From an uncultured Acidiferrobacteraceae bacterium (GTDB lineage: Bacteria > Pseudomonadota > Gammaproteobacteria > Arenicellales > UBA868): 64,000 bases of DNA. Below, one piece after another: positions 10,217-39,565 of this stretch. Within the stretch, counting starts at the first letter, position 1; the number at the start of each line of letters is the position of its first letter. The stretch covers positions 1 through 64,000 of the forward strand of contig CAZVVN010000006.1 of the NCBI GenBank assembly GCA_964630665.1, written 5' to 3'. The position numbers and the translations under genes were made by a program. Below the pieces are notes generated by a model. That model saw nothing but the letters and a program-made list of their open reading frames with translations. It was not told where the DNA came from and searched no databases.

Positions 10217-10241
10217 CGGATTGCTCTCGAGATGGTGGCCT

Positions 10242-12614
10242 TCAGGCTGGCCTGATCAGCAGATTTCCAACGGAATCCACTTCTCCAGCATGGCCGGGTA
10301 AGACCAGGGTCGTGGAGTCCATTTCGGTTACGATCGCGGGACCCGCAATCCTGTCTCCGGCCCTAAGCACGGCCCGGTCAAGAATGTCAGCGTCGTGCTC
10401 GCGACCTTCAAAGTAGATCTTGGAACGGGCATAGACCGCCCCGGAGGCATCGCCGTTTCCGCCGGCTAGCGCTTCGGCTTCTGCTGCGCTTTCCCTGCCC
10501 TGAACCAGTGCCCGAAGCGTGTAGAGTTCCCGCTCGGTCTCCAGGGCAAAAGTGAACAGTTGCTCGTGCATCGCATCAAAACGTTTCCCGAGCTCAGCAA
10601 GGCCACCGGATTCAAATTCGGCCGGCGTCATCTCGATAGTCAAACGCATACCCTGCCCGGCATAACGAAGATCGACCTGGTAGGCTGTCGACTGATCGCT
10701 TCGCGGAACGCCTTCAGCATCCAGAGTTGCGGCAGCCGAACCCGCCAGTTCAGTCAGGATTCCCAGTACCTGCGTGTCATCAGTTTCAGAGAATCGTCGG
10801 ACGAAGGTCCGAGAAGCCTCGTCGCGGACCCGGGTCGTGGCGTCACCGTAAGCGCACAACACCCCGGGTCCTGGCGGAATAATCACCGGCCAGGAATTCA
10901 TCAGACTGCCCAGGGCATTGGCATGCAGCGGGCCGGCCCCACCAAAGGCGACCAGTGCAAAATCCCTGGGATCAAAGCCCTGTTCCACTGACACCAGCCG
11001 CAGTGCGCCAAACATGTTCTCGTTGACGATGTTGACGATCCCTTCCGCTGCGTCCTGAACCGACAAACCCATGGCCTTGCCGACAGCAGCGACTGCCTGT
11101 TCCGCCTGATCGCGATCGAGCTCCATGTCGCCGCCGAGCTTGGCACTCGACGGCAGGTAGCCCAGGACCACGTTGGCATCGGTCACGGTGGGCTCGGTTC
11201 CACCCATGGCATAGGCAGCCGGCCCCGGCTCAGCACCGGCACTCTGTGGTCCGACGCGCAGGGCCCTCGTCAATTCCGGAACGTAAGCAATCGATCCTCC
11301 CCCCGCACCCACAGTCCGCACATCAATGGAAGACGAGCGCACGGTCACGTCCGCAACCCGGGTCTCGCGTCTTGTCTGAGCTACACCGTTTTGAATCAGG
11401 GCAACGTCTGTCGACGTGCCACCCATATCGAAGGTTAGAAGATCGCTGTAACCGGCCTGCCTGGCCATCCACACTGCACCCGACACGCCACCGGCCGGCC
11501 CGCTCATCAGCAGGTTGACCGGGGTTGCCTTGGCCGCCTCGGCCGACGCCAGGCCACCATCGGAACGCAGAATATGCAACTGCATCCCGCTCATTCGCCG
11601 ATTGAGCTCCGACTCAAGGTTCTCAATGTAGTTCGAGACCACCGGCCTGATGTACGAATTCACGACCGTTGTCTCGGTTCGTTCATACTCGTACATCTCC
11701 GGAACCACTTCCGATGAAATCGAGATCGGGATGCCAGGCAAAATACCCTCGGCCACCTGTCGAACCCGCTGCTCGTGTACACCGTTGGCGTAAGCGTTCA
11801 TCAGCGACACGGTCAGCGCCTCGATCCCGGCGCCGGACAACGCTTTCAGTGCCTCAGCCAGGGCATCCTCATCAAGGGGCCGGACGACCTCCCCTTTTGC
11901 GCCGATCCGCTCGTCTGCTTCAATGGTCAACTCCAGTGGCGCCAGGGGATCGCTCTTATTAAAGATCACCCAGCCACCCAGGCCACCCGGTACATAGGAC
12001 CGGGCGATCTGCAGAACCTGCTTGTAGCCTTTGGTCGTCACCAGCCCAACCCGGGCACCACTGGCTGTCAAAACGGTGTTGGTGGCCACTGTCGTGCCGT
12101 GCATGACATGACTGATATCAGCGAGAGAAACACCGGCCTGCTGACAGACCCGCTCGATGCCACTCAGTACCCCGATCGAAGAGTCTTTCGGGGTAGAGGG
12201 CACCTTGGCGGTAAAACTACGCCCGCTGGACTCCTCGATCAGCAGGATGTCGGTAAAAGTTCCACCAACATCAGCCCCCAGTCGGTAGCCGGCTTGACCG
12301 GCAACGCGCCTGGGCGCCGCAGTGGGCCCTTCCGTCGGAGCGGGTGTCGAAGCCGCCTGGGTACTGGCAGGCCTGCTTCTCGTTGCCGGCAGGTCAGGCG
12401 GTGGATCGTCTTCAGGCCTTTTCCGGGCCACCTCGGGTGAACGCTCCGCCGGTGGATCGTCAGAACGAGTCGTCCGCGGCGGGGCAGGAGGCTTGACCTG
12501 GGCAGGTTCTCCCGCCCGGGTCCGGTCACCCCGGGCCAGTGCAGCAAAGTCATCCTTTGCCTTTTTCAGTTCGGCATCGAACCAGCCCGTCGATTTACGC
12601 GAATCTTTCGTCAT
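10242..12614 (-). CDS. hyuA: Hydantoinase A / oxoprolinase family protein (HyuA-like) with a Pro/Ala-rich N-terminal extension of about 110 aa, cluster 1
   Basis: 790 aa. The core begins GADVGGTFTDILLIEE (Hydantoinase_A N-terminal signature). Before it sits a low-complexity segment (KPPAPPRTTRSDDPPAERSPEVARKRPEDDPPPDLPATRSRPASTQAASTPAPTEGPTAAP). No internal Met is available, so the extension is translated if ATG 12614 is used. Confidence 0.8.
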   Translation of the reverse strand: MTKDSRKSTGWFDAELKKAKDDFAALARGDRTRAGEPAQVKPPAPPRTTRSDDPPAERSPEVARKRPEDDPPPDLPATRSRPASTQAASTPAPTEGPTAAPRRVAGQAGYRLGADVGGTFTDILLIEESSGRSFTAKVPSTPKDSSIGVLSGIERVCQQAGVSLADISHVMHGTTVATNTVLTASGARVGLVTTKGYKQVLQIARSYVPGGLGGWVIFNKSDPLAPLELTIEADERIGAKGEVVRPLDEDALAEALKALSGAGIEALTVSLMNAYANGVHEQRVRQVAEGILPGIPISISSEVVPEMYEYERTETTVVNSYIRPVVSNYIENLESELNRRMSGMQLHILRSDGGLASAEAAKATPVNLLMSGPAGGVSGAVWMARQAGYSDLLTFDMGGTSTDVALIQNGVAQTRRETRVADVTVRSSSIDVRTVGAGGGSIAYVPELTRALRVGPQSAGAEPGPAAYAMGGTEPTVTDANVVLGYLPSSAKLGGDMELDRDQAEQAVAAVGKAMGLSVQDAAEGIVNIVNENMFGALRLVSVEQGFDPRDFALVAFGGAGPLHANALGSLMNSWPVIIPPGPGVLCAYGDATTRVRDEASRTFVRRFSETDDTQVLGILTELAGSAAATLDAEGVPRSDQSTAYQVDLRYAGQGMRLTIEMTPAEFESGGLAELGKRFDAMHEQLFTFALETERELYTLRALVQGRESAAEAEALAGGNGDASGAVYARSKIYFEGREHDADILDRAVLRAGDRIAGPAIVTEMDSTTLVLPGHAGEVDSVGNLLIRPA

Positions 12615-12674
12615 CCTTTAACGAATTTCCATCTGCTTGTTCATCATCCAATACCTAACGCAGACCGCGGCCCA

Positions 12675-13316
12675 TCAGTCCAGCGCCTGCCGCCACGCTC
12701 TGATCTGACCAATTGCCTCATCGGCATCGGTCAGATCACAATAACGGCGCTCAACATCCCGCAGGTTGTCATGGTGCGGGCCTTCATCCTGATCTCCCAC
12801 ACAGTCCTCGGGCACCAGCGTCCGGAACCCCCACTGGAAACAGTCCACGATCGACGCACGGACACAGCCCGATGTCGTGCAGCCCACCACAAAGATTGTA
12901 TCCACTGACTCCTTGTTGAAAAAGGCGGCGGCTGGTGTCTGAAAGAACATCGAGGCCCCCGATTTGCGCATCGCAACGTCGTAATCAGGGTCATAGGTCC
13001 GGGGATCAAGTTGAGTGGGCGTCTCACCTTCGATCAGATCTTCGAGCACCGCTGAGATCTTCCAGTAAGGCATATCCCGCCGGGAGTTGTAACCCGTATA
13101 ACAGGTCGCCACGGGCACACCGCAGGACCTGGCAACTTCGAGTAAGCGAGCAGTATTCTCGATCGCCCGCTGAACCAGGGGTGCACCACCTAGGGAAAAA
13201 ACGGGATCGGTAAAGCCGAGCTGGAAATCAACTACGGCGATCCCGGGCTTGCTACCAAAACCGATCGCCTCGCTGCCGTAGGAGCGTTGGCTGTAAACGT
13301 CCTGCTCGCCATTCAC
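12675..13316 (-). CDS. Isochorismatase-family cysteine hydrolase (N-carbamoylsarcosine amidase-like), cluster 1
   Basis: 213 aa. Motif VVGCTTSGCVRAS (catalytic Cys region of isochorismatase/CSHase-like hydrolases), AVVDFQLGFTDP near the N-terminus, and a DxxxxxN region. It lies directly upstream of hyuA-hyuB on the same strand. Confidence 0.75.
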   Translation of the reverse strand: MNGEQDVYSQRSYGSEAIGFGSKPGIAVVDFQLGFTDPVFSLGGAPLVQRAIENTARLLEVARSCGVPVATCYTGYNSRRDMPYWKISAVLEDLIEGETPTQLDPRTYDPDYDVAMRKSGASMFFQTPAAAFFNKESVDTIFVVGCTTSGCVRASIVDCFQWGFRTLVPEDCVGDQDEGPHHDNLRDVERRYCDLTDADEAIGQIRAWRQALD

Positions 13317-18066: not shown

Positions 18067-19005
18067 CTAGAGCAGCTTGAGCATAGCGTCGGCCCCACTG
18101 CTGTCGACCTGGTGACCGGCCTCGACGATAAGGTCCTTGATGACACCGTCGTTGACGATCATGGCATAGCGCCTGGAACGCAGGTTAAGACCCAGAAACC
18201 TCAAGTCTTCGACCATTCCCATTGCCCGGGTGAATTCGCCGTCTCCATCTGCAACCATACTGACCCGACCCTCGACGTTCTGGCTTCGGCCCCAGGCTTG
18301 CATGACAAAAGGATCATTGACAGCCAGACAGATGATGTCGTCGATACCCCGGTCGCGGATCTGATCGGCCTGCCGCACATAGCCCGGCAAGTGCTCTGCA
18401 GAACAGGCCGGTGTATAGGCGCCGGGTACTGCGAACAGAACTATCCTGCGCTGCGAAAAGAGCGCTTTGACGTCCACCGCCTGCGCTGTGTCACTTATAA
18501 GCTGGTAGACCTTCGCGCTCGGAACGGGATCACCGATAGCAAACCGGGCGTCAAGATAACCCAGCAGCGCTTTCATCTCATCACGCAACTGCCCTCTGGA
18601 TGACCATTTGACGAGCTGGCCAGTTGGATTTACCAGGCAAAGACCTGCAGAAACCACCGGTGGAAGACTGCGATCAAGATTCGCCGTAAACGACCCGCCA
18701 GGGTCACTGACCATGTCGAACGGCAGTTGGTACTGCTCAATAAACCTTCTGTTGGTCGCTGCATGATGGCCATTAAGACCGATTATCAGCGTGTTACGCG
18801 AAGTGAATTCCGGATAGTGATCGCGTAACCAATGCCAGTCGTCCGAGAGACCTGCTACGGGGAAATGATCGGTCCTCAGCAGCAACACATGGTGGCCGCG
18901 GTAATCGCTGAGATCCGTCAACACGCCCTGCTGGTTGGGCAACCCGCCAGTCGCTACAGGCGAGGAGCCTTGATTGGAGAACATCCCGCGGGACTCGGCT
19001 CGCAA
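18067..19005 (-). CDS. Tandem redoxin protein: degenerate N-terminal redoxin-like domain plus C-terminal Prx5-type peroxiredoxin
   Basis: The C-terminal half carries FAVPGAYTPACSAEHLPGY, the Prx5/AhpC-TSA peroxidatic Cys motif. The N-terminal half looks redoxin-like but lacks the active-site Cys (HFPVAGLSDD). Confidence 0.6.
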   Translation of the reverse strand: MRAESRGMFSNQGSSPVATGGLPNQQGVLTDLSDYRGHHVLLLRTDHFPVAGLSDDWHWLRDHYPEFTSRNTLIIGLNGHHAATNRRFIEQYQLPFDMVSDPGGSFTANLDRSLPPVVSAGLCLVNPTGQLVKWSSRGQLRDEMKALLGYLDARFAIGDPVPSAKVYQLISDTAQAVDVKALFSQRRIVLFAVPGAYTPACSAEHLPGYVRQADQIRDRGIDDIICLAVNDPFVMQAWGRSQNVEGRVSMVADGDGEFTRAMGMVEDLRFLGLNLRSRRYAMIVNDGVIKDLIVEAGHQVDSSGADAMLKLL

Positions 19006-19010
19006 CTAAA

Positions 19011-19469
19011 TCAGAGCAGTTGGACGCAACGCCTCAAGGCATCGTCTACAGCTTCTTGGTAGGCCGCTTCTTCGGTTTCCCGCTCGTTTCGGTAAACGCC
19101 AGGCACCGGGGGCTCAATCCGGGCCGACCCAAACTGCGCCTTGCGTGAATCCTGCCCGGACAACTCAAGACAGCACAGCACAACGATTTCATCTCCCTCG
19201 CGTCGACGGTCCCGGACCTGGCAGCGCCACTGGTCCGGGAAATGCCGGTCAAGCCAGGCCGACGGACCAAGACTGTCGAGATCATTCTTTTCCGGCCTGA
19301 CCTGCTGCATATCCGCAACCGGTGGTACGCCGGGCGCCGGTTGCCGGTTACGGGCAGACCCGGCGCTGCCGATACCCGATCCATCGTAGAGCGATTCCAG
19401 TTGGCGCCGATTCCCTTCGAGCAGGGTATCGAACGATTGACCGAAGCTTGGCCCGGAGTTAGAACCCAC
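19011..19469 (-). CDS. Small protein with a disordered N-terminus and a C-terminal Rad52-like minidomain, paralogous to the HyuB-fused extensions
   Basis: 152 aa. WLDRHFPDQWRCQV...EIVVLCCLELSG...EAAYQEAVDDALRRCVQLL aligns with the N-extension of HyuB (23164) and the C-extension of HyuB (34549). It sits between the isochorismatase-like and peroxiredoxin genes in a tightly spaced, co-directional string. Confidence 0.5.
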   Translation of the reverse strand: MGSNSGPSFGQSFDTLLEGNRRQLESLYDGSGIGSAGSARNRQPAPGVPPVADMQQVRPEKNDLDSLGPSAWLDRHFPDQWRCQVRDRRREGDEIVVLCCLELSGQDSRKAQFGSARIEPPVPGVYRNERETEEAAYQEAVDDALRRCVQLL

Positions 19470-19480
19470 TTGATCTTCTC

Positions 19481-20224
19481 TTAAGACCTGACAGCCGTCG
19501 GCAGCCTATCCTGCCACCACTGGCGAAAGTCATTATCCGCCACTGCCGCCAACCCACCGGCGTCGACCAGCGCTCCGAGATACTCCAATACGTCCCGCTC
19601 TGACTCGACATCACAATACTTGGCGTCCATGTCAAACAAGTTCGCCTGGTGTGGTCCATCGGCACGGTCACCGACCCCTTCACGTACGACCACAGTCTGA
19701 AAGCCATGCTGCAGAGAATCAACCGCAGAGGCCCGGACACAGCCGCTGGTCGTACAGCCTGTGATGATCACGGTGTCCACGTCGAGTCCGTGGAAGTAGA
19801 CATCCAACTCCGTGCCAAAAAAAGCGCTGGCGAATTTCTTGACAATGACCTGCTCGCCCTCAACCGGTGCGATCCGCTCGTCGATCTCCACCAGCGGCGA
19901 CCCGTTGACCAGAATCGAGAGCGAAGGTACCTTCTTGATGAACACACCAGCATCGCGAAAGTCGGGGTCATAGGCCACCGTGGTGTAAACAACCGGTAGA
20001 CGGCCCCGGCGGAACTCGGCCAGCAGGCGGGATGTGGTGTCCAGTTGCCGTGTGAAGTCCCCACCCAGCGGTGAGTCCGGGTCCGTGAAGCCATTGCTGA
20101 AATCGATGATCAGGAGCGCAGGATTTTGCCCATAGCCCGAGCGACTGGCGAGCCCCTTGGCGAGGTACGACTCGCGGGTGCTGTCCTGCCAGTCATTCAT
20201 GCTGTAAAGAGGGCTGCCTGACAA
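19481..20224 (-). CDS. Isochorismatase-family cysteine hydrolase (N-carbamoylsarcosine amidase-like), cluster 2
   Basis: 247 aa. ITGCTTSGCVRASAVD and ALLIIDFSNGFTDP are close paralog matches to the 12675..13316 product. Confidence 0.75.
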   Translation of the reverse strand: MSGSPLYSMNDWQDSTRESYLAKGLASRSGYGQNPALLIIDFSNGFTDPDSPLGGDFTRQLDTTSRLLAEFRRGRLPVVYTTVAYDPDFRDAGVFIKKVPSLSILVNGSPLVEIDERIAPVEGEQVIVKKFASAFFGTELDVYFHGLDVDTVIITGCTTSGCVRASAVDSLQHGFQTVVVREGVGDRADGPHQANLFDMDAKYCDVESERDVLEYLGALVDAGGLAAVADNDFRQWWQDRLPTAVRS

Positions 20225-20244
20225 TCAGAGAAATCCTGCACACG

Positions 20245-20811
20245 TCAACCAGGCCCGGATGATGACCTGGGCGGTGTCCAGCGATGGCGCCACCCCAGCC
20301 GGAATGACCGGACAACGCGGTGCAGCAGGTAGAAGAGCACAGCCAGCACTACCAGCACGAACACTGACAGCAACCGGCGGCCGAATGCAGCATCAATCAC
20401 AGAGCCGTCGTTCATCAGGTGTCCACTCAGCATCTCGACGGCCTGTATGGTCGCACCGGCACACAGGATGACGGCAGCTAGAACCGCGATCTGCAGCGTA
20501 TCGAAAATCAGATCCTGAGCGTTCGATTCAGTTACCCCCTGGAAAATACTTTTTCGAAATGACTGCCAGTGAGAGACGACGAAACTGATCACGGCGACCA
20601 GCGAGGCAAACCAGAACAATATGTTGGAGAAGTGAATTCTCGGGATATTGTCGATCAAGTACTGTACGAAAGGCTGGTAGAAAAGCAAGAAAATGATCAG
20701 AATCACGATCACAATCAGCCCAATCCACCGGCCTGGGCTGTGCCACCGACTGCTAGGCTCTTCCATCAGGTATAGGGGCCTCTTGCGGTGCCAGGAACGC
20801 AGAACGCTCAT
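20245..20811 (-). CDS. Small polytopic membrane protein (unknown family), paralog of 32788..33264
   Basis: 188 aa with about 4 predicted TM helices. Shared motifs with the 32788 ORF are FYQPF/FFQPF, GATIQAVE/GATLQAVQ and DAAFGRRL/DADFGRRI. Confidence 0.5.
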   Translation of the reverse strand: MSVLRSWHRKRPLYLMEEPSSRWHSPGRWIGLIVIVILIIFLLFYQPFVQYLIDNIPRIHFSNILFWFASLVAVISFVVSHWQSFRKSIFQGVTESNAQDLIFDTLQIAVLAAVILCAGATIQAVEMLSGHLMNDGSVIDAAFGRRLLSVFVLVVLAVLFYLLHRVVRSFRLGWRHRWTPPRSSSGPG

Positions 20812-21080
20812 GGCAGACCTTGAATCACGTCACGTCAGACACTAATGATAGTGCAGCCAGTGGGCAATGCCAAACTCAACTGATGCCAGAGTCTGCGCCA
20901 GCCCCGGAGATAAGACGCTTGCGGACCCGGCTGTAGAACCGTTCAGTGGCGTGTCGGGTCTTCCCGAGGGTAGTGTTCTGTTGTAGATTTGTCCGGTTTC
21001 AACACTAAACAGCGGCAGGCCATACGGACATGGACCAGCGCCGGCAATTGCTGGAATAACAAAGGAGAGATCGGACCCGC

Positions 21081-23150
21081 ATGTCTATCCGCCTCGGCAT
21101 CGACGTTGGAGGGACCTTCACAGACCTGTTGCTTTTTGACGAGGTCAACGAAGTGTTTCATCTTCACAAGACCCCGTCGACACCCGATGACCAGTCGCTG
21201 GCTATCCTGCAGGGCGTTGGCGATCTTCTCGACCAGTCCGGGGTATCTGCCGACCAGGTCCAGTCGCTCCTGCATGGTACGACAGTTGGAACCAACATCG
21301 TTCTCGAGGGGAAAGGGGCCAGAGTCGGCCTGCTGGTCACCGAAAACTTTGAGCAAGTACTGCATCTGGCCAGATCGCAGACACCCGGGCCACTGGCTGG
21401 CTGGATCACCATGCAGAAACCCGATCCCCTGGCTGATCTTGAATTCACCCGGGGAATACCCGAACGGATCAACGCCCGCGGGCAAATTATCCAGCCAATG
21501 GACGAGGCCCATGCCCGACAACTGATCGATGAGTTGGTGAACAAAGGCGCCGAATCGATCACGATTTCGCTGCTGCATGGCTACACAAACCCAACCCATG
21601 AGCGGAAACTTCGTGACATCATAGCGGTCACCTATCCTGATCTGCCCGTCTCGATATCCTCGGACATCCTCCCCGAGTTTCGCGAATACGAACGCACCCT
21701 CGTGACTGTCATGAACGCGTATATACGCCCAGACATGCGCGGATACCTGGCAGGTTTCAAGCAGAAGCTCGAAGCCCTGAATTCCACCCCCAAGCTGCAC
21801 ATTGTCCGCTCGGACAGCGGACTGATGGGTATCGAACATGCGATGGAGTCCCCGGTCTACACGCTGCTGTCAGGCCCCGCCGGCGGTGTCGGCGGGGCAG
21901 CCTACCTGTCCAGACTGACGGGACACCCGGATACGGTCGGCTTCGATATGGGCGGCACATCGACCGACATCTCCCTGATTCGAAACGGGCAGCCCACCGC
22001 ATCCCGGCAGACGTCACTCGGGAGTTACCCGATCAAGATCCCATCGGTCGAAGTCCACAGCGTAGGTGCGGGCGGTGGCTCGATTGCCCACGTCCCGATG
22101 ACCGGAGCTTTACGGGTAGGACCTGAAAGTGCCGGTGCCGTCCCGGGGCCTGCCTGCTACGGCAACGGTGGTACGGCAGCCACGGTGACCGATGCCAACG
22201 TAGTTCTCGGCCGCCTGCCGGAGTACCTGCTCGGCGGGAAAATGCCGCTCGATATCAAGGCAGCAGAAGATGCTGTCGGGGCAGTCGCACGACAACTCGA
22301 TCTGGACGTTTTCGAAGCCGCCCAGGGCATCATCGACATTGTCAATGAGAACATGTTCGGCGCCCTGCGCCTGACCACGGTTCAAAAAGGACTGGACCCG
22401 CGGAACTTCGGCTTGGTGGCGTTCGGTGGCGCTGGCCCGTTGCATGCCAATGCCCTGGCGATTCTCGGGCGGTGCTATCCCGTCATTGTGCCCCCTACGC
22501 CAGGGGTGTTGTCAGCGCTCGGTTTTCTCCAAGCCAGTGTCCGGAACGAAGCCAACCAGAGCATCATCCGGAACCTCTCCGATGTCGCCCCGGAGGAGTT
22601 GGGCAACATCGCATCCCGCCTGACTGATAACATCAGAAACTGGCTCTCTGGAGAAGGCATTGCTGTCAACGACCAGTCCTTGCAGCACGAGATCGACATG
22701 CGCTACCTCCGACAGGGCTATGAACTGTCGCTGCCATTTCAGCCAGAGAAAATCACCCAGGCAACACTGCAGGATCTGGGTGAGCGCTTCAATACCCTGC
22801 ACGAGCAACACTACGGGTTCAAGGTGAACTCGGTCGTGGAGATCGTCAACCTGCGCGTGATCGGCTTGGGTAAGGTTGCCGAGATGAATTCGCCAAAAGC
22901 ACGGCCTGGCAGTGCTGATCCAGCGGCTGCCTTGGCTGGGGAGCGACAGGTTTTCTTCGATGGCGCATCATTTGCTACAAATATCTACGAAAGAAACGGG
23001 TTGACAGCGGGTAATGAGATCACCGGCCCGGCCATCATCAGCCAGACCGATGCGACTACCATGATCCACCCGGATCACGTTGCTACAGTCGATGAGCACC
23101 TGAATATTCTTATCCAGCCCAGGATCCCGGCTACCGAGACCAGACACTAG
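21081..23150 (+). CDS. hyuA: Hydantoinase A / oxoprolinase family protein (HyuA-like), cluster 2
   Basis: 689 aa beginning MSIRLGIDVGGTFTDLLLFDE. It is preceded by a Shine-Dalgarno-like AAAGGAGAGA. Hydantoinase_A core motifs run throughout. Confidence 0.85.
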   Translation: MSIRLGIDVGGTFTDLLLFDEVNEVFHLHKTPSTPDDQSLAILQGVGDLLDQSGVSADQVQSLLHGTTVGTNIVLEGKGARVGLLVTENFEQVLHLARSQTPGPLAGWITMQKPDPLADLEFTRGIPERINARGQIIQPMDEAHARQLIDELVNKGAESITISLLHGYTNPTHERKLRDIIAVTYPDLPVSISSDILPEFREYERTLVTVMNAYIRPDMRGYLAGFKQKLEALNSTPKLHIVRSDSGLMGIEHAMESPVYTLLSGPAGGVGGAAYLSRLTGHPDTVGFDMGGTSTDISLIRNGQPTASRQTSLGSYPIKIPSVEVHSVGAGGGSIAHVPMTGALRVGPESAGAVPGPACYGNGGTAATVTDANVVLGRLPEYLLGGKMPLDIKAAEDAVGAVARQLDLDVFEAAQGIIDIVNENMFGALRLTTVQKGLDPRNFGLVAFGGAGPLHANALAILGRCYPVIVPPTPGVLSALGFLQASVRNEANQSIIRNLSDVAPEELGNIASRLTDNIRNWLSGEGIAVNDQSLQHEIDMRYLRQGYELSLPFQPEKITQATLQDLGERFNTLHEQHYGFKVNSVVEIVNLRVIGLGKVAEMNSPKARPGSADPAAALAGERQVFFDGASFATNIYERNGLTAGNEITGPAIISQTDATTMIHPDHVATVDEHLNILIQPRIPATETRH

Positions 23151-23163
23151 CGAGGAGAGATCG

Positions 23164-25479
23164 GTGAGTAGCAAATCAGCATCACTGGAAGAACTGGTCA
23201 GGGCCAACAAGGCGCAGTTCGACCGGATCTTTTCGACACAGATGGGAACGCCGGATGCACAACCGGGTGACACTGCCGAACCGTCTGAAACCCCGGCTTC
23301 AGTGGCAGAAGACGGTCAGGCTCCCCTGGACAGCAGTATCAGAAAGGTCCTGACCGAACGTTACGGCGACGGCTGGTCGCAGGAGATTGTCGAGCACAGT
23401 ATCGACGGTGACGAGGTCCGGGTCGTGTGCAGACTCGAAGCCGATGGATTGGCCAGTACGCAGCATGGCAACGCCAGGAACAGCGGCAACGTCGGGATCG
23501 CTCTGCAGCGTGCCAGCGACAATGCTCTGGCCCGCTGTTACCGTGAACTGGACCCAGACGGCACCCGAGCAACTGACTCATTTAAGGCGCCTGCGGCTTC
23601 AACATCTTCCCTGCCCCAGGATCTCCTGCCTACCGCTGCTGTCCGTTTAGCGGCCAGCCAGCGACAACGACCGGGGCAGCAGATCGATACAGTCACCCTG
23701 GATCTGATCGAAAACGCTCTCAGGAACGCGCGCCATGAAATGGACGCGGTACTGTTCCGCTCTGCCATGTCCCCAGTCATACGCGAACAGCACGACGAAT
23801 TCCCGATGATCACCGATCGACGGGGGCGAATGATTGTCGGTCAGTTCGGTTCCTACGTCGCCCAGATGCTCCGTGAGAAGAAGTTCGACCTCTCACCGGG
23901 AGACGTGATTCTTCAAAGTGATCCCTACCAGTGCGGCGGTGCGATCAGTCACATCAACGACTGGCTGGTCCTCGTTCCGGTGTTCCACCAGGAGGCTCTG
24001 GTCGGCTTCAGTTCCATGTTCGGACACATGATGGATGTTGGCGGACCAGTCGCCGGCAGTATGCCTACTGGCGCAACCACAATCTATGGGGAAGGCATCC
24101 GAATCCCGCCCATCAAGATCTTTGAGAAAGGCAAAGTCAACCAGGCAGCGCTGGATCTGATCCTCAACAATACCCGAACACCTCAGATGAACTACAGCGA
24201 CCTGATGGCAATCATCGCTGGAAGCCGTGCAGGTGAGAAACGGGTGGTGGAAATCTGTGACCGGTTTGGGCGAGAGACTTATTTTCAGGCCTGCGAGGCC
24301 CTCCTTGACCGTACCCAACAGGCCATGAAACGACTGATCGTCCAAAACCTGCCCACGGAACCCCAGTCATTCGAAGATTATGTCGACGATGACGGCTGTG
24401 GCAACGGCCCGTTCAAAATGAAACTCACACTCTGGCGGGAGGGTGAGCACGCTTTCTTCGACTGGACCGGTACCTCTGACCAGGCACCCGGCCCCATCAA
24501 CTTCTACCTGCACGAAGGTATGTTCAAGATGTTTATCGGGGTCTACATGATCATGGTCTTCGACCCACAGATCCTCTTCAATGACGGGTTCTATGATCTG
24601 GTCCATGTCACCATGCCCACAGGATCCGTACTGCAGCCCGAGTTTCCTGCAGCACTGGGCTGCAGGACCCACGCCCTGGCACGCCAATTCGATGTCCTGG
24701 GCGGTGCACTGAGTCACAAAGCCCCTGAGCTGGCCACTGCAGCGGGCTACGGCTCCAGCCCGCATTTTCTCTACTCTGGCATTGACCGGCAGGGTACCCC
24801 GTTTCAGTTGATGGAGATCCTGTATGGCGGTATTCCCGGCAGACCTGTTGGCGACGGCCTGGATGGGCATTCGTGGTGGCCGCTTTTTGAAAACATTCCG
24901 ACCGAATACCTTGAGATTTATTTCCCTCTGGTGGTCGAAAGCTACGCCAGCATCCGCGACTCCGGCGGCGCTGGCCAGCACCGCGGGGGCAACGGTGTCG
25001 AAAAGATCTACCACATTCTGGAGCCTGGGGAGATCTCGATCCATGACGACCGGCACCAAAGCCAGCCCTGGGGTATTCTCGGAGGCAAACCCGGTGCCTG
25101 TTCAGAGAAATGGATCATCCAGAAAGAGGCAGGGCGTAAAGCACTGTCCTCAAAAGTCGACAATGTGCAGGTCTATCCTGGTGATAGAATCATTTTCAGG
25201 ACCGCCGGCGCCGGCGGCTGGGGTGACCCCCTGGAACGGGAGGTGGGCGCAGTCAGGAACGACGTCGCGCGCAATCTGGTCGGTGTCGATACCGCGCGAC
25301 AGGCGTACGGTGTCATCATCAACGAAAACACCCTCGAGGCTGATGTCAGGCAGACCGAGGAGTTGAGGCAGAGAATGAGGAACAACCGATCCCCGCTGGC
25401 TGTCTTTGACTTTGGCAGCAGGATTGTCGGGGTTTCCCACAGGAATGGGGTCGAATCTGGTGAGCAGGCCCCGGTTTGA
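23164..25479 (+). CDS. hyuB: Hydantoinase B family protein (HyuB-like) with a roughly 170-aa N-terminal extension containing a Rad52-like minidomain, cluster 2
   Basis: 771 aa. The Hydantoinase_B core starts near residue 175 (TLDLIENALRNARHEMDAVLFRSAMSPVIREQHDEFPMI). The N-extension contains LTERYGDGWSQEIVEHSIDGDEVRVVCRLEADGL...ALQRASDNALARCYREL. It follows hyuA after a 13-bp gap. Confidence 0.85.
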   Translation: MSSKSASLEELVRANKAQFDRIFSTQMGTPDAQPGDTAEPSETPASVAEDGQAPLDSSIRKVLTERYGDGWSQEIVEHSIDGDEVRVVCRLEADGLASTQHGNARNSGNVGIALQRASDNALARCYRELDPDGTRATDSFKAPAASTSSLPQDLLPTAAVRLAASQRQRPGQQIDTVTLDLIENALRNARHEMDAVLFRSAMSPVIREQHDEFPMITDRRGRMIVGQFGSYVAQMLREKKFDLSPGDVILQSDPYQCGGAISHINDWLVLVPVFHQEALVGFSSMFGHMMDVGGPVAGSMPTGATTIYGEGIRIPPIKIFEKGKVNQAALDLILNNTRTPQMNYSDLMAIIAGSRAGEKRVVEICDRFGRETYFQACEALLDRTQQAMKRLIVQNLPTEPQSFEDYVDDDGCGNGPFKMKLTLWREGEHAFFDWTGTSDQAPGPINFYLHEGMFKMFIGVYMIMVFDPQILFNDGFYDLVHVTMPTGSVLQPEFPAALGCRTHALARQFDVLGGALSHKAPELATAAGYGSSPHFLYSGIDRQGTPFQLMEILYGGIPGRPVGDGLDGHSWWPLFENIPTEYLEIYFPLVVESYASIRDSGGAGQHRGGNGVEKIYHILEPGEISIHDDRHQSQPWGILGGKPGACSEKWIIQKEAGRKALSSKVDNVQVYPGDRIIFRTAGAGGWGDPLEREVGAVRNDVARNLVGVDTARQAYGVIINENTLEADVRQTEELRQRMRNNRSPLAVFDFGSRIVGVSHRNGVESGEQAPV

Positions 25480-25509: not shown

Positions 25510-28095
25510 TTGAGAACGGGGATTTCACCCATGTCAATTGAAACGTTGATCACACTGGTGATCCTGGCCGTCATTGCGGTCGCGATCTTCTACATCATCT
25601 CTGTCTGGGTCTACAAAAGGGCCCCGGCCAACATGGGTTTTATACGGACGGGGTTCGGCGGAACCAAGGTCTGCCTGGGCCAGGGGGCGATGGTGCTGCC
25701 GGTCTTCCATGAAGTCAGCTGGGTATCACTGGAGACCATAAAGCTGATTGTCAGCCGCTCCCGTGACCAGGCGATACTGACCTCAGACAAGATCCGTGTC
25801 GACGTGGTAGCCGAACTCTACACCCATGTCGGACACACGGAAGAGGACTTATTGACCGCCAGCCGTAGCCTCGGAGAGAAGACCTTCGACGCCGACAACG
25901 TCCGGAACCTTCTGGAGGCAAAGATCATCAGCGCCTTGCGCAGCTATGCAGCGACCAAGACACTGAACGAGTTGCACGAAAACCGAGACACCTTCGCAAA
26001 AGACATCAAGAGCCAGGTCCGCGACAGTTTCCAGGCCAATGGCCTGAACCTCGAAGAGGTCACCATCGTGACAATGGAGCAAACCGGCAAGGAGTATTTC
26101 AAGACCGATAACGTGTTCGATGCCGAAGGGCTCAAGATCATCACGGCGATCACCTCCAAGGCCAAACGCGAAGTTCACGACACCGAGAAGAAAGCCAGTG
26201 TCGCTATTCGTCAGAAAGAACTCGATACCCAACTCGAGCTGCTCGAGATCGAACGCCAGGAGGCCTTTGCCAAGGCCAATCAGGATAAAGCAGTGTCCAA
26301 TGAGCAGGCCCTGCGGGTTGGTGAAAAACAGCGTTACGTCCTTGAGCAGAAAATGGCGGTCGAACAGAAAGAAATCGAGAACGAACAGACGCTGGAGCAA
26401 CTTCGGACCGACCGGGATGTCGCGATCATCGAAGAGGCTCGTAAGCGTGAAATCGCCGAGATTGAGAAAACCCGGATCACCGAACAACAAAGGCGGGACC
26501 GGGAGATCCATCTAATCTCCAAGGCCAAGGAGGAGGAACTCGCCAATATCCAGCGGAACCTGGATCTGGAAAAAGCCGAGAAGGATCGGCAAATCGAACT
26601 TCACGTAAAATCAAAAGAAGAACAACTCGCCCAGATCCAGCGTGAACAGGCACTGGAGATTGCAGAGAAGGACAAGCAAATCCAGTCCATCGCAAACGAC
26701 CGGCAACGTCAGGAGGCTGAAATTCTCCGACAGACTGCGATCACGACCAGCGAGGAACAGGCCCGTGAAGAAAGGGTCAAGGCCAGTGAAATTGCCGAAG
26801 TCGCGATTCAACAGCAGAAACTTGCGAGCCGTCTGTCCCTGCTGGATGTGGACAAGAATGACGCTTTTGCAACAGCGACCCAGGAAAAAGAAATTGCCGA
26901 AGAGCAGGCTAGGATCCTGACCCAGAAGCAGTTGTTTTTGCTCGAGCAGAAGTGGCAGGTGGAGCAGGAAGAAATCCACAAGGAACTCTCTGTCGAACAG
27001 GCGCAGATAGACAAGGAAGCACAGGTCCTGCTGGAATCACAGAAAAAAGAAACGGCCGAAGTGCAACGCTCACTGGCCCGACAATCCGAGGAACGCAATC
27101 GGGAAATCGCCCTGGCGGCCAAGGAAATGGAGCTCGAGCAGGCCGAGGCGCGTCGCCTTGAGGCCACCGCGGCCCGGCAGAAAGCCGAGCACGAGGCCGA
27201 ATCGGTGCGGCACGTCGCGGATGCTGAGCGGCAACGTATCATTGACCTGATAGAGGCAGAGAACAGCGCCGAGACCCGGCGGGTGGAGGAAGAAAACAAG
27301 GCGCAGATCTCTAGAATGCATATGCTCGCCCAGGCCGAAGCCCGCAAAGAATCAGCACAGCGTGAGGCGGATGCCACCCTGACGAGAGCCAGGGCCTCCA
27401 GTGAGGCGCAGCAAATCAATGCGCTCGGTATTGAAAAAGAAGCTGCCGCCAAAGGCCGCGCCGAGATGGAGATCGAGCAACTGCGGGTTGACAACACCCA
27501 GCGCATGCTCGAGGCGGAGGCCAGTGGTATCGAGGCCAAAGCCGACGCGCTCAAGAAGTACAACCTGGCGGCGACTTTCCTGGAGCTTTCCAAGCTGCAT
27601 ATCGAGGCCGAACGTGATGTGCGCAGCGATCAGGCCAAAGCCATGGGCAATGCCCTGCAGGGTGCCCAGATCCGCATGTACGGCGGCAGCGACGATGGGA
27701 CCATAGACAACATTCGGAGCCTGTTTACCTCGGGCTTCGGCGTCGGTGAGGCCCTAGAAGGTCTTGCCCAGTCGATGCCGGAGGGCCTGCGGCAACGCTT
27801 TGCAGAAAACGGTATCCGTGGCCTGTTCGGTGCCCCCGGAGGTGCCGGGCGCTTCCAGCACGCGGTGACCGAAATTGGAGAGCTTCTGACGCAGACTTTG
27901 AAAACAAAGAAAAGCCGGGAAGAAACAGATTTCAGGGACGCCATGCTGCAGCTCGAAGAGGCCGCGGGATCGGATAAGTCCAAGTTAGAAGCAGTTTCGC
28001 TGCTGACTGATTTCAACCAGGCCGGGGTGTTCGATGAAGTGTCGTTCGAGACCGTCTGGAGCCTATTGCTGGCAACCTCGAAAAGCGTCAACTAA
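25510..28095 (+). CDS. Flotillin / SPFH (band 7) family protein with N-terminal TM helix and a very long coiled-coil region (861 aa)
   Basis: It has an N-terminal hydrophobic helix (IETLITLVILAVIAVAIFYII). The SPFH domain follows (GFIRTGFGGTKV...IVTMEQTGKEYF). About 450 aa of heptad-like E/K/Q/R/A-rich repeats come next, then a flotillin-like C-terminus. The gene sits 30 bp after hyuB. Confidence 0.8.
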   Translation: MRTGISPMSIETLITLVILAVIAVAIFYIISVWVYKRAPANMGFIRTGFGGTKVCLGQGAMVLPVFHEVSWVSLETIKLIVSRSRDQAILTSDKIRVDVVAELYTHVGHTEEDLLTASRSLGEKTFDADNVRNLLEAKIISALRSYAATKTLNELHENRDTFAKDIKSQVRDSFQANGLNLEEVTIVTMEQTGKEYFKTDNVFDAEGLKIITAITSKAKREVHDTEKKASVAIRQKELDTQLELLEIERQEAFAKANQDKAVSNEQALRVGEKQRYVLEQKMAVEQKEIENEQTLEQLRTDRDVAIIEEARKREIAEIEKTRITEQQRRDREIHLISKAKEEELANIQRNLDLEKAEKDRQIELHVKSKEEQLAQIQREQALEIAEKDKQIQSIANDRQRQEAEILRQTAITTSEEQAREERVKASEIAEVAIQQQKLASRLSLLDVDKNDAFATATQEKEIAEEQARILTQKQLFLLEQKWQVEQEEIHKELSVEQAQIDKEAQVLLESQKKETAEVQRSLARQSEERNREIALAAKEMELEQAEARRLEATAARQKAEHEAESVRHVADAERQRIIDLIEAENSAETRRVEEENKAQISRMHMLAQAEARKESAQREADATLTRARASSEAQQINALGIEKEAAAKGRAEMEIEQLRVDNTQRMLEAEASGIEAKADALKKYNLAATFLELSKLHIEAERDVRSDQAKAMGNALQGAQIRMYGGSDDGTIDNIRSLFTSGFGVGEALEGLAQSMPEGLRQRFAENGIRGLFGAPGGAGRFQHAVTEIGELLTQTLKTKKSREETDFRDAMLQLEEAAGSDKSKLEAVSLLTDFNQAGVFDEVSFETVWSLLLATSKSVN

Positions 28096-32787: not shown

Positions 32788-33264
32788 TTATGCCCTGACC
32801 GGTCGAATCAGCTTCAGCAGCCAGAAAATAACACAGAATATACCCGTGATGATCACCAGGGCGATCGTCGCTGCAATACGCCTGCCGAAATCCGCGTCAA
32901 ACCCATGGCCGCTCTGCAACAGATAAGTACAGACGTTCTGGACCGCCTGCAGGGTCGCACCACCGCTCAACAGAATCGCCGTGAAAGTCGATCCTCTCAA
33001 AGAGGTCAGAACCATCGATTCGATGCTGCGCTGCTGGACGATATGTACCTTATAGGCGTGCCAGTGAAATGTGCAGAATCCGATGATGCCGATTATCAGA
33101 GCAGCCCAGAAAATCGCATTGCTGTAGGTCACCCCATTGAGGACCAGAGTAAAGAGGTCCTCAAATGGCTGGAAGAAATAAAGGAACACCAGGACGAGAA
33201 TGAGCAGGAGAAATCCTACCAGCGTCCAGAACCACTGCCATCCTGTCATATTCACTGCACCCAA
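32788..33264 (-). CDS. Small polytopic membrane protein (unknown family), paralog of 20245..20811
   Basis: 158 aa with about 4 TM helices. It shares motifs with the 20245 ORF (see that entry). It is last in the string isochorismatase-hyuA-hyuB-membrane-membrane. Confidence 0.5.
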   Translation of the reverse strand: MGAVNMTGWQWFWTLVGFLLLILVLVFLYFFQPFEDLFTLVLNGVTYSNAIFWAALIIGIIGFCTFHWHAYKVHIVQQRSIESMVLTSLRGSTFTAILLSGGATLQAVQNVCTYLLQSGHGFDADFGRRIAATIALVIITGIFCVIFWLLKLIRPVRA

Positions 33265-33432
33265 AAATCTGTGGCCAATCGGAAATCCTATCCCGATCGT
33301 GCCTTACTAAACGCTAGTTATTACCCAGGGTAAGTGCGCTCGAGCCCATGTAATCTGAACCAAATCGTGCTCGAATTCAAGCAAACACCGCCCGGCGGGC
33401 TGTCAGACCCATGCCCACTCCAGCAAGTGCCC

Positions 33433-34548: not shown

Positions 34549-36711
34549 TCAGTTATCTCGCAGAACTTTCTGCGCACATTTGAACAGGCTCTGGTCGGCG
34601 GCAGCCTGAAGGCGTGCGCCGATCGATGATGCGCTGGGGTTCTCATCGGTACCGGTTTCGCTGGCATAGGTGCCGTTGGCCCGCAACTCACCACGCACTT
34701 CGGCAAAACCTCGGCGAGAGGAGTAATAAACGACGTCAAAACTCCAGGCCTCACCAAACGCCTCGCGCAGGGATTCGATCGTTGAATCACGGCTCTGGCT
34801 TACACCAGAAACCGCTGTTTCAACGGCGGTCGACCTTCGGCCGGGTGCAGTCCGCTGGGCTGTTTCAGAGGTCGCAAGCCGTGATTCTCTGAGCGCAACC
34901 TCTTCGGGGCTGCGATCCCGGCTTTCACTCAGGGTCCCAGCCGGCTGACTGCGCATCTGGGCGCGGAGCGATTCGGTGGCAGTGTCATTGACCCTTTCTG
35001 CAGCCAGATCAACAACCACACCATAGGCCGCCTTAGCGTGTTCCACCGTACAGAAATCGTCCAGTACATCTTCTAGAACCTGCGACGCTGGACGTTCCAG
35101 TGGGTCGCCGTATCCGCCGCCACACGGTGCGTAGAACGCGTGAACCTCACCGGCTTTGATCTTCAGGCCGGAGAACTTGGCCGGCATCTGTTGAATGTCA
35201 TCCGGATCATCGACGTTGTAGATCTCGACCTTGCCGGTTGTTCCCGGCCAACCGCCGAATATGCCCCAAGGCACGTCATGGTGCCGTTCGTTTTCGTGGG
35301 TGATGAAACCGTCGGTGAGCACGCGCTGGGACTTGACCACACCGATACCACCGCGAAAGCGCCCGGCTCCGGGCAGCACATCGTCGCGAAGCTCATAACG
35401 GTCACAGATCATCGGCAAGTGCATCGCGAGGTCTTCCAGCGGATTGTTACGCGTATTGGCCATCAGGTTATCTATGCTGTCCGGGCCATCGGAGAGCGGC
35501 CGACCTCCATAGGCGCCCTCGTTGACTTCCAGAAAGACCCAGTAATCACCCGATGGCCTGACTCCCGAATAAGAGACAAAAGACAGCGACGCGGAACTGC
35601 CAGCGATGATCTGATCGGGTAGAACCGGCGCCAGAGCCTTATAAATGAGGTCGATCACCCGGTTGACCTGGGTAAACCTTGCTTCTGCGGCAGCAGGAAA
35701 CTCAGGGTTGTAGATCGAACCTTTGGGCGCGATCACCTTGATCGGTCGGAACGAACCTTCGTTGGACGGCACCTGGATCTCCGAGGTTTCGGCATCCAGC
35801 AGCAAAGAGCGGATCGCGCAGAAACATGCGACTTTAGTCGAACCTTCAAATGGCACGTTAAATCCGGTCTCGACCTGGTCTGATGAACCGGTCAGGTCGA
35901 TCTCAATCGAATCGCCTTGAACCCGCACGCAGACCTTGATGGGCAAGCGTACGTCGCGGTTTTTGCCGTCATCATCCAGATAACCTTCCGCACGGTATTC
36001 ACCATCCGGAATCTTGTCGATCTTCTGCCTCAGTATCCGCTCGGTGTAGTCCATCAGCTGGCCGGTGGCTGCCAGGATCGTGTCCTTCCCATAACGCTCC
36101 ATGAGTTCGACAAAGCGCCGCACACCCAGCTTGGCAGAGGCGATCTGAGCCTCTATATCACTTTGCAACTGTTTGGCAGCGCGGCTGTTTCGTCCCAGAA
36201 ACTCCCACAGGGCGTCATTGCGGACACCCCTTTCATAGAGCTTGGTACCGGCAAACAGCATGCCCTCGGCATAGACATCCGGTATATCGATGATCAACCC
36301 CGGGGTGGCCGCTCCGATATCTAGATGATGCGCGGTGTTAGCTGCAAAACCGACCAGCTGGTCCTGATAAAAACAGGGAATCACAATGGCAAGGTCAGGC
36401 GAGTGACTGGCTCCGAAGTAGGGGTGGTTGTGAAGCACCACGTCGCCCTCGTTCCAGACACCACCTTGCAGTGACTCCTGGATGCCGTACAGGTAACCAG
36501 GCAGAGAACCAATGTGCAACGGTGTCGACTCCGATTCACACAAAGTGTTGAAATCAGTATCAAACAGGCCGGCACCGAGATCCTGCGATTCGCGAATGAT
36601 CGACGAGAAGGACATCCGGTAAAGGATATGGCCCATCTCCTCGGCGATGGTATCCAGCGCGCCGCTGATGACCTGTAAAGTGATCGGATCTAGTTCGTCA
36701 GCTGCCATCAC
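34549..36711 (-). CDS. hyuB: Hydantoinase B family protein (HyuB-like) with a roughly 130-aa C-terminal extension containing a Rad52-like minidomain, cluster 3
   Basis: 720 aa. The Hydantoinase_B core is marked by DPITLQVISGALDTIAEEMGHILYRMSFSSIIRESQDLGAGLF... and GGGYGDPLERP. The C-terminal tail contains LREAFGEAWSFDVVYYSSRRGFAEVRGELRANG...LQAAADQSLFKCAQKVL. Confidence 0.85.
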   Translation of the reverse strand: MMAADELDPITLQVISGALDTIAEEMGHILYRMSFSSIIRESQDLGAGLFDTDFNTLCESESTPLHIGSLPGYLYGIQESLQGGVWNEGDVVLHNHPYFGASHSPDLAIVIPCFYQDQLVGFAANTAHHLDIGAATPGLIIDIPDVYAEGMLFAGTKLYERGVRNDALWEFLGRNSRAAKQLQSDIEAQIASAKLGVRRFVELMERYGKDTILAATGQLMDYTERILRQKIDKIPDGEYRAEGYLDDDGKNRDVRLPIKVCVRVQGDSIEIDLTGSSDQVETGFNVPFEGSTKVACFCAIRSLLLDAETSEIQVPSNEGSFRPIKVIAPKGSIYNPEFPAAAEARFTQVNRVIDLIYKALAPVLPDQIIAGSSASLSFVSYSGVRPSGDYWVFLEVNEGAYGGRPLSDGPDSIDNLMANTRNNPLEDLAMHLPMICDRYELRDDVLPGAGRFRGGIGVVKSQRVLTDGFITHENERHHDVPWGIFGGWPGTTGKVEIYNVDDPDDIQQMPAKFSGLKIKAGEVHAFYAPCGGGYGDPLERPASQVLEDVLDDFCTVEHAKAAYGVVVDLAAERVNDTATESLRAQMRSQPAGTLSESRDRSPEEVALRESRLATSETAQRTAPGRRSTAVETAVSGVSQSRDSTIESLREAFGEAWSFDVVYYSSRRGFAEVRGELRANGTYASETGTDENPSASSIGARLQAAADQSLFKCAQKVLRDN

Positions 36712-36732
36712 TTATATGCCCATGACGGGTAT

Positions 36733-38808: not shown

Positions 38809-38869
38809 GATCGCGGTCCATTGGCCGGTCGCATCTGACGTTCAGTTTCCCCGATCTCATGGTCTGGTG

Positions 38870-39565
38870 TCATGCGACCTCATGTTGCGAGCCCGATTCG
38901 ACCGTGGCAAGGTAGTCCAGCACCCGGCTCAGTGGCTCGACATCGCCGAACTTGGCGTCTATATCGAACAGATTCCATTCAGTCACTGCCGGTACGCGGT
39001 CTCCTACGGCCTCTCGGACCACGATCGGCCGAAACCCCTCGGCAATCGCGTCTTCTGTGGTGTGTCTCACACAACCGGCCATCGTGACGCCGGTAATGAT
39101 TACTGTATCCACGTCCTGTGCCCGCAGGAAACCTGCCAGATAGGTTCCGTGAAATCCACTGGCACGTTTCTTCTCTATCACCATCTCGTTGTCGAGCGGC
39201 GCAATTCGGTCATCGATAGCACAAGTTTCACTGCCGGCCTGCAGTAACTCCGCCGGAATCTTCTTGTGCCACAGACCCATGTCCGTGGGATCGCCTTGGG
39301 TGACATTGTAGGCGGTGGTCGTGAACACGATCGGAATACCAGCGGCGCGGGACGCTTTGAGCAAAGCCTGGGTAGAAGGGATGATGACATCCATGTTGTC
39401 GCAGAAAAAGACATTGCCGGGGCGGGTCCAGGCATTGGCAAGGTCGATATTCAAAAGTGCCGGACGCTTGCCGAATCCGATCCGCCGCTGGAATCCCCGC
39501 TCCTTGTACAGCGCCGAATCAATGGCGAAGATCTTGTCTAATGCATCCTGAATCTCGTCTGACAT
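38870..39565 (-). CDS. Isochorismatase-family cysteine hydrolase, closest in motif content to N-carbamoylsarcosine amidase (CSHase), cluster 3
   Basis: 231 aa. Motifs are ERGFQRRIGFGKRPALLNIDLANAWTRPG, IDDRIAPLDNEMVIEKKRASGF and ITGVTMAGCVRHTTEDAIAEGFRPIVVRE. They match my recollection of the Arthrobacter CSHase family, including the GCVRH catalytic-Cys context. This is unverified. Confidence 0.75.
   Translation of the reverse strand: MSDEIQDALDKIFAIDSALYKERGFQRRIGFGKRPALLNIDLANAWTRPGNVFFCDNMDVIIPSTQALLKASRAAGIPIVFTTTAYNVTQGDPTDMGLWHKKIPAELLQAGSETCAIDDRIAPLDNEMVIEKKRASGFHGTYLAGFLRAQDVDTVIITGVTMAGCVRHTTEDAIAEGFRPIVVREAVGDRVPAVTEWNLFDIDAKFGDVEPLSRVLDYLATVESGSQHEVA

Follow-up and report, generated by a model that had tools for sequence, protein, structure and literature searches.

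The 64,000-nucleotide stretch of contig CAZVVN010000006.1 analysed here (the window), from an uncultured Acidiferrobacteraceae bacterium, encodes in open reading frame (ORF) 23164..25479 (+) a 771-aa HyuB-type hydantoinase subunit that has an extension ahead of its catalytic domain. The extension, residues 1-174, is a full copy of a small, previously undescribed protein that consists of a helix, a disordered linker and a domain of about 75 residues. The domain defines a new, unannotated family with a hairpin-less Rad52-type fold, three copies of which are encoded in the window. This module occurs in three forms: a stand-alone protein encoded beside an isochorismatase-family amidase, an N-terminal extension of HyuB and a C-terminal extension of a second type of HyuB. 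The family is chiefly a stand-alone one partnered with the amidase and is not peculiar to this HyuB. A sequence-only reading of the window had noticed the extension, put it at about 170 aa and likened its core to Rad52.

The ORF begins with a GTG 13 nt past the stop codon of hyuA, with GAGGAG ahead of it. Pfam Hydantoinase_B spans only residues 175-689 (profile 1-519/519, E = 2.7e-145), leaving 174 aa in front, in agreement with the earlier estimate. This full-length match to the family model places the C-terminal 597 aa in Hydantoinase_B (PF02538), and the closest PDB sequence match of the HyuB core is the N-methylhydantoinase 7hk5_A (3e-66). Residues 1-174 had no match in Pfam or NCBIfam, even at E <= 10. 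The peptide from which the likeness to Rad52 had been read, LTERYGDGWSQEIVEHSIDGDEVRVVCRLEADGLASTQHGNARNSGNVGIALQRASDNALARCYREL, is encoded at 23335..23553 in frame with the ORF, and the N-terminus of the fusion, MSSKSASLEELV..., is seen again in relatives. Given the ribosome-binding site, this conserved N-terminus and the same architecture in at least 9 other, independent loci, we reject a mis-called start or an assembly artefact as the source of the extension.

The fold was predicted with two AlphaFold2 models, both of monomers, made from separate queries (the fused copy and a stand-alone paralog) with largely overlapping family alignments. The fused-copy model, built from a 54-sequence alignment, covered residues 1-140, with residues 141-174 lying outside it. 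It has helices at residues 8-26, 58-67 and 110-129, strands at 71-81, 84-93 and 96-105, and disorder at 28-56. The predicted local distance difference test score (pLDDT) of the domain is 83-90 in the fused copy and 83-97 over both models, so the extension is not wholly disordered; it falls below 50 over residues 134-140, the last of the model. A Foldseek search of the PDB with the fused copy ranked human RAD52 first (E = 8e-5), followed by many double-stranded RNA-binding domains (dsRBDs), the global template-modelling score of the RAD52 match being poor because of the disordered regions. For both models the closest solved structures are Rad52 and Mgm101 (PDB 5jrb, 8g3g, 9yi6), and dsRBDs and the N-terminal domain of ribosomal protein S5 score consistently lower. 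As modelled, the domain has the core of the Rad52/Mgm101 fold, a beta-sheet with a bridging helix. Neither model has strands N-terminal to this core; the segment there is the helix and a disordered linker with pLDDT < 50.

The sequence profiles align as well. Comparison by hhalign of 192 module sequences with 97 Rad52 sequences gave Prob 84%, P = 7e-6 and a score of 34.4, against no more than 20.0 in 300 column shuffles (150 of each profile) and 12.6 for the reversed profile. The 22 confident columns lie around (F/Y)G-x-GW-S/R-x-x-I, and greedy and global alignments both span RAD52 residues 68-158 with each secondary-structure element in register. This is the register the sequence-only reading had proposed from a YGxGW core, a following strand and an A..AL.R helix. 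A smaller module alignment (A4) reached Prob 53% against Rad52 with 22-24 columns confident, and another (A3) matched the single human RAD52 sequence weakly in the same register (Prob 9%, P = 0.004). In hhalign, Rad52 alpha-1 and the hairpin were matched with the module's N-terminal helix and linker at zero confidence, and this part was dropped as evidence. Judged against these controls, the module is more like the Rad52 motif than expected by chance, and remote homology of the module to Rad52/Mgm101 is plausible.

What the module shares with Rad52/Mgm101 (Pfam PF04098) is a helix, a three-stranded antiparallel sheet and a long bridging helix, together with (F/Y)G-x-GW-S/R-x-E/S-I at the helix/strand-1 junction and A..(D)AL.(K/R) in the last helix. 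The superfamily of single-strand annealing proteins (SSAPs) is defined by a beta-hairpin and a beta-sheet with bridging helix, both of which are required for DNA binding (PMC11783212). The module has neither the beta-hairpin nor the C-terminal stem helices of Rad52, is about 75 residues long as opposed to about 180, and is acidic (median net charge -2, pI 5.4) where the RAD52 core has a pI of 8.8. The basic groove of human RAD52 that binds single-stranded DNA (R55, Y65, K152, R153, R156) is not reproduced: the residues of the hairpin have no counterpart, and of the three basic DNA-binding positions in RAD52 helix 3 just that of R153 tends to stay basic (K/R in 60%), Ala (56%) standing at K152 and Ala/Glu at R156. 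Scans of 54 members against Pfam and PHROGs gave zero matches at E <= 10 to Rad52_Rad22 or other SSAP models, the comparison that the sequence-only reading had proposed. The module is also encoded with metabolic enzymes and not with recombination genes. Judged by the hairpin, the curated models and the DNA-binding residues, the module does not belong to the Rad52/SSAP family, and it is most likely not a single-strand-annealing protein. Of the annealing-type fold suggested earlier, what survives is a folded helix-beta-beta-beta-helix unit closest to Rad52 and Mgm101; the hairpin, the basic character and a place among SSAP models do not. The domain is plausibly a remote Rad52/Mgm101 homolog that lost, or never had, the DNA-binding beta-hairpin and basic groove.

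Assignment to the dsRBDs also fails at the sequence level (Pfam PF00035 and relatives), the only match among the 54 members being DSRM_2 at E = 0.13. The N-terminal position of helix 2 is E/D/A in the module, whereas dsRBDs have a basic, KKxAK-type N-terminus there. A precedent for a small RAD52-like motif inside a protein of different overall function is RDM1 (PMC11783212), which by description differs from the module in being eukaryotic, in pairing its motif with an RNA recognition motif and in binding nucleic acids. No paper in the literature searched links Rad52 with a hydantoinase, in line with the sequence-only reading, which knew of no such fusion.

An exhaustive hidden Markov model (HMM) search over 1.84 billion representatives, with clusters at 50% identity, found 407 clusters of the family at E <= 1e-3 and 163 at E <= 1e-10. 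These are mainly stand-alone proteins of 140-200 aa (typically about 160 aa) that share the layout of N-terminal helix, non-conserved Pro/Ala-rich linker and domain. The helix motif is SSAFDDMLxxNRRELDxLY in general and SLxELxxANKxQFDxIF in the fused subfamily. Across 192 non-identical domains, in the numbering of the window HyuB, the most conserved positions are W71 (99%), A117 (99%), L63 (97%), C125 (97%), V87 (96%) and G102 (96%), followed by A113 (95%), A121 (95%), L122 (93%), G68 (91%), A104 (91%), F or Y at 67 (91% together) and R66 (80%). The resulting signature (L63, R66, [FY]67, G68, W71, V87, G102, A104, A113, A117, A121, L122, C125, plus an N-terminal helix of the form (S)xFDxML or SLxELxxAxxxQFD) is present here, and the family HMM matches the fusion at E = 8e-32 and the stand-alone paralog at E = 5e-33. 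Membership of a curated family was rejected, scans of Pfam, NCBIfam and PHROGs being empty; since neither Pfam nor NCBIfam has a model for it, the family is currently invisible in annotation. A profile search of the PDB with hmmsearch gave no significant match, the hits being of the kind of the 'YGPxWH' motif of LC8 dynein light chain (E about 0.6). A phage or plasmid origin was likewise rejected, tblastn having found no family homologs in plasmid and phage collections. All 13 of the 13 genome loci recovered are metagenome-assembled genomes (MAGs).

The window holds three paralogous clusters of isochorismatase-family amidase, HyuA and HyuB, at 8324..13316 (-), 19481..25479 (cluster 2, with the fusion) and 34549..39565 (-) (cluster 1), which carry zero, two and one module copies respectively; the other two HyuBs are 52% and 30% identical to that of cluster 2. 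The second copy of cluster 2 is the stand-alone paralog at 19011..19469 (-), which follows the amidase gene 19481..20224 (-) by 11 nt and is itself followed by a Redoxin gene. The sequence-only reading had held that the extension has no counterpart in the cluster-1 HyuB. This is incorrect, for a homologous module lies at the C-terminus of that protein (34549..36711, -), where it reads ...STIESLREAFGEAWSFDVVYYSSRRGFAEVRGELRANGTYASETGTDENPSASSIGARLQAAADQSLFKCAQKVLRDN. The cluster-1 HyuB is the third-best family-HMM match among the 676 ORFs of the window (E = 9e-4), the next match being at E = 1.9. The trio of C-fused modules aligns with the rest of the family with Prob 98.5% and E = 4e-15 by hhalign, and in L019/L020 a second HyuAB pair also has the module at the HyuB C-terminus.

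Homologous N-terminal extensions are found on HyuB elsewhere, a check that the sequence-only reading had proposed. The helix-linker-domain-linker-HyuB architecture recurs in at least 9 other loci from Alpha- and Gammaproteobacterial MAGs, with module identities of 37-90%, and N-fused HyuBs were found in L008, L010, L012-L016, L018, L021 and L023. Those of L008 and L010, of 762-763 aa, were recognised by direct translation. The profile search added two partial module-Hydantoinase_B proteins of about 50% identity (P0009, P0010), and further fusions are present among the cluster representatives (P0186, P0190, P0197, P0200); a word-indexed search with residues 1-179 returned just seven short metagenomic proteins. 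The fused copies share a subfamily signature of a short loop and GDxGAALQRAT, and the second linker, between module and catalytic domain, differs in length and sequence from fusion to fusion.

In L001 and L002 the module is a separate 157-aa gene before a 579-aa HyuB. DNA alignment traced this split to a 13-nt deletion relative to the window, within nt 23534..23548 (about position 1930 in L001 and 1650 in L002, on contigs that are 96-99% identical), which shifts the frame in the last helix, just ahead of the second linker. Either a true polymorphism or an error of assembly could account for the deletion; the independent contig L005 retains the window reading frame at this site. Two other apparent stand-alone cases were set aside. 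The L004 contig ends in a Nextera adapter, CTGTCTCTTATACACATCT (L004 1090..1123), and was rejected; L005 is unreliable as such a case, its tail (745..885) encoding a reversed LeuC fragment in a chimeric contig. The false C-termini of the module proteins P0006 (L004) and P0005 (L005) are thus due to metagenome contig artefacts. P0155 (amidase plus module) and P0022 (module plus GCV_H) were discarded as Rosetta-stone fusions, both having the appearance of frameshifted or chimeric metagenome ORFs.

Features of the module-HyuB fusion, its neighbourhood and the other module copies in the window (aa, amino acids; res, residues; RBS, ribosome-binding site; TM, transmembrane)
Feature	Position	Strand	Details
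Module-HyuB fusion ORF	23164..25479	+	771 aa, GTG start, GAGGAG RBS
N-terminal amphipathic helix	23185..23241	+	res 8-26, SLEELVRANKAQFDRIFST; predicted helix, pLDDT about 60-76
Linker 1, disordered, Pro/Ala/Glu-rich	23245..23331	+	res 28-56; pLDDT < 50; not conserved in alignment A3
Alpha-beta3-alpha Rad52-fold domain	23332..23553	+	res 57-130
Linker 2, module to catalytic domain	23554..23685	+	res 131-174
Hydantoinase_B catalytic part	23686..25479	+	Pfam PF02538, E = 2.7e-145
HyuA, ATP-binding subunit	21081..23150	+	NCBIfam caprolactamase subunit alpha, below curated cut-off; co-transcribed upstream
Stand-alone module paralog	19011..19469	-	152 aa: N-terminal helix, linker, domain
Isochorismatase-family amidase, N-carbamoylsarcosine-amidase-like	19481..20224	-	Pfam PF00857
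Redoxin/Prx5-like gene	18067..19005	-	Pfam Redoxin, res 158-309; downstream of stand-alone module
Multi-TM protein beside hyuA	20245..20811	-	conserved, no family match
SPFH/flotillin-like 861-aa protein	25510..28095	+	Pfam Band_7; directly downstream of module-HyuB
C-terminal module copy on cluster-1 HyuB	34552..34785	-	ORF 34549..36711, res 643-720

The gene order around the fusion is conserved. On one strand stand the Redoxin, stand-alone module and amidase genes, then the multi-TM protein gene; on the hyuAB side follow hyuA, module-hyuB, the 861-aa SPFH/flotillin-like gene and a gene for an ATP-binding cassette (ABC) ATPase. In all 16 of the 16 distinct loci with upstream sequence, a PF00857 gene precedes the stand-alone gene at a distance of 10-28 nt. 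In seven loci a stand-alone copy and an N-fused one lie within 10 kb of each other; L008/L009 and L010, where the HyuB N-termini were read directly, come in addition. Redoxin keeps its position in L008-L012, and SPFH in every locus with sequence there (L001, L012-L015, L018, L021, L023). In L003 and L006/L007 a QueF-like gene and a Fer2/molybdopterin oxidoreductase, and no hyuAB, come after the amidase and stand-alone module, so that the module-amidase pairing is the more basic association. The best PDB match of the amidase is 26st_A, an N-carbamoylsarcosine amidohydrolase (5e-63), with 1nba at 9e-39. NCBIfam equivalog cut-offs are not reached by these enzymes; by sequence similarity, HyuB and the amidase belong to enzymes that act one after the other in the N-methylhydantoin (creatinine) route, or that handle a closely similar substrate.

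The N-terminal helix is not confined to module proteins. A helix-only HMM matches stand-alone proteins, N-fused HyuBs and a Redoxin in L008/L009. This Prx5-like Redoxin (L008 8536..9024, +; also in L009) begins with the same motif, MTEQNRAVGSASLDELFKASKEQFDNIFTTQM (HMM E about 1e-4), and has the helix motif SLDELFKASKEQFDNIFTTQM as in the HyuB fusion without the domain, which suggests that the helix is a portable docking element. The third HyuA of the window (10242..12614, -) has a 110-aa N-terminal extension with a short helix, TGWFDAELKKAKDDFAALARG, and then a Pro-rich linker; its likeness to the helix motif is by eye, the helix HMM gave no match, and we do not claim it. The window Redoxin ORF, 18067..19005, encodes 312 aa, of which the first 157 residues resemble a degenerate thioredoxin-fold half, unless the true start is internal.

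Several further features of these loci were recorded. The multi-TM protein, of about 175-190 aa, adjoins hyuA in all loci, and a 30%-identical paralog (32791..33303, -) lies beside cluster 1. The SPFH protein 25510..28095 has a long Glu/Ala/Gln-rich coiled-coil region, with the ABC ATPase next to it, and a second SPFH gene, 31% identical, is at 59179..60789 (-). Alphaproteobacterial loci (L008 4458..6999, L010, L014-L021, L023) encode three further proteins between the amidase and the membrane protein, a polysaccharide-deacetylase-like one (PF01522), one of 109 aa that has a CxxC at its N-terminus, and a CobW GTPase; this insert is absent from the window.

Of the explanations weighed, the most likely one, though we stop short of calling it probable in itself, is that the module is a tethered protein-protein interaction and oligomerisation unit that couples the hydantoinase and amidase steps. 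It would tether the ATP-dependent, N-methylhydantoinase-like HyuAB and the next-step amidase into one assembly. The stand-alone protein is translationally coupled to the N-carbamoylsarcosine-amidase-like hydrolase; in the assembly it would bind the copy fused to HyuB, and the N-terminal helix may dock onto the domain. Also in favour of this reading are the successive reactions ascribed to the two enzyme types, the helix motif at the start of the L008/L009 Redoxin and the acidic character of the domain. Its attachment to HyuB by disordered linkers, at the N-terminus in one type and at the C-terminus in the other, accords with an autonomous module on a tether, and a free copy beside the amidase together with tethered copies on HyuB in one locus fits a co-assembly module. 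In the acetone and acetophenone carboxylases of the HyuAB family, terminal arms of the HyuB-type subunit hold small accessory subunits, so that small extra polypeptides or extensions on this subunit mediate subunit contacts (PMC8453981). They differ from the present case in that the sequences are unrelated (the module has no Pfam match to the acetone carboxylase gamma family) and in that the arms of these carboxylases do not fold as independent domains held by long disordered tethers.

Four observations weigh against this coupling role or the Rad52 relationship behind it. The third HyuAB cluster (8324..13316) carries no module. The 13-nt deletion in L001/L002 leaves the module separate from HyuB with its last helix cut short, so that the fused copy may be dispensable in some strains, unless the deletion is an assembly error. 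The Rad52 sequence signal is confident over about 22 columns only. Finally, the 97% conservation of Cys125, together with the Redoxin gene nearby, hints at some redox or chemical function beyond scaffolding. A more elaborate version of the coupling idea, which we regard as rather unlikely to hold in full, is that the hairpin-less Rad52-fold offshoot has become a self-associating scaffold, maybe forming Rad52-like rings, in which the copies on either end of HyuB would assemble with the free copy made alongside the amidase, with the helix as docking peptide, in a multi-enzyme hydantoin/creatinine assembly that is perhaps SPFH-anchored.

Cys125 is also the starting point of an alternative in which the module is not a scaffold and serves as a regulatory sensor, by redox through this cysteine or by ligand binding, that tunes HyuAB and the amidase. 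Both Cys125 and Trp71 (99%) are nearly invariant, the operon continues after the stand-alone module with a Prx5-like Redoxin gene, and isochorismatase-family amidases use a catalytic cysteine. We nevertheless think a sensor unlikely, in that the single conserved Cys sits in the helix packed on the sheet and may be a core residue, there is no evident pocket or cofactor motif, and attachment at either terminus by long disordered linkers is atypical of an allosteric domain.

The helix and module might instead target the enzymes to a membrane scaffold, formed by the SPFH/flotillin-like protein, the multi-TM protein or both, which would place catabolism next to the ABC importer. Wherever the sequence extends that far, module-hyuB is followed by the genes for the 861-aa SPFH protein and an ABC ATPase, and a conserved membrane protein precedes hyuA. 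Encapsulation and docking peptides of other systems are of the short amphipathic helix type, and the amphipathic N-terminal helix with its poorly conserved linker, common to different enzymes of the locus, resembles them. Cluster 1, however, has no adjacent SPFH gene and its module no N-terminal helix, and stand-alone modules occur in loci without nearby hyuAB or SPFH genes (L003, L006/L007), which leaves membrane targeting a small chance.

Retention of an ancestral Rad52/dsRBD-type nucleic-acid binding is distinctly improbable, whether the target were single-stranded DNA, a structured mRNA for autoregulation, or oxidised (hydantoin-type) bases to which the hydantoinase is brought. It would agree with the top structural matches, which are ssDNA-annealing proteins and then dsRNA-binding domains, with the conserved ERRRDG turn of stand-alone members and 60% K/R at the RAD52 R153 equivalent, and with hydantoins being known guanine oxidation products (PMC12623156). 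The net negative charge of the domain, the missing beta-hairpin and the Ala or Glu at the K152 and R156 equivalents speak against it, as do the absence of homologs from the phage and plasmid collections and a gene context that always consists of amidase, HyuAB and transporter, with no consistent link to genes of recombination or repair.

It is very improbable that the extension is a neutral by-product of a small neighbour gene read into hyuB and functionless when fused: the module is a separate gene elsewhere and a 13-nt indel suffices to split it off in L001/L002, but the fused copy has been kept in two classes of Proteobacteria, at 90% down to about 37% identity and with a signature of its own subfamily, its loci also contain a stand-alone paralog, and there is an independent C-terminal fusion.

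Annealing of nucleic acids is regarded as the dedicated task of Rad52-type folds, and a sizeable family of at least 407 clusters that keeps the sheet and helix without the hairpin and basic groove, and is genetically tied to two consecutive catabolic enzymes, would widen the known roles of the fold. Were the self-associating scaffold described above to prove true, it would put the Rad52 fold to a purpose other than nucleic acids for the first time and represent a novel mode of organising a catabolic pathway. If the module couples the hydantoinase and the amidase, as in the reading we prefer, these loci provide a testable example of pathway organisation by portable tethered domains, and the family may help to explain how poorly understood ATP-consuming lactamases of marine and soil Proteobacteria are assembled.

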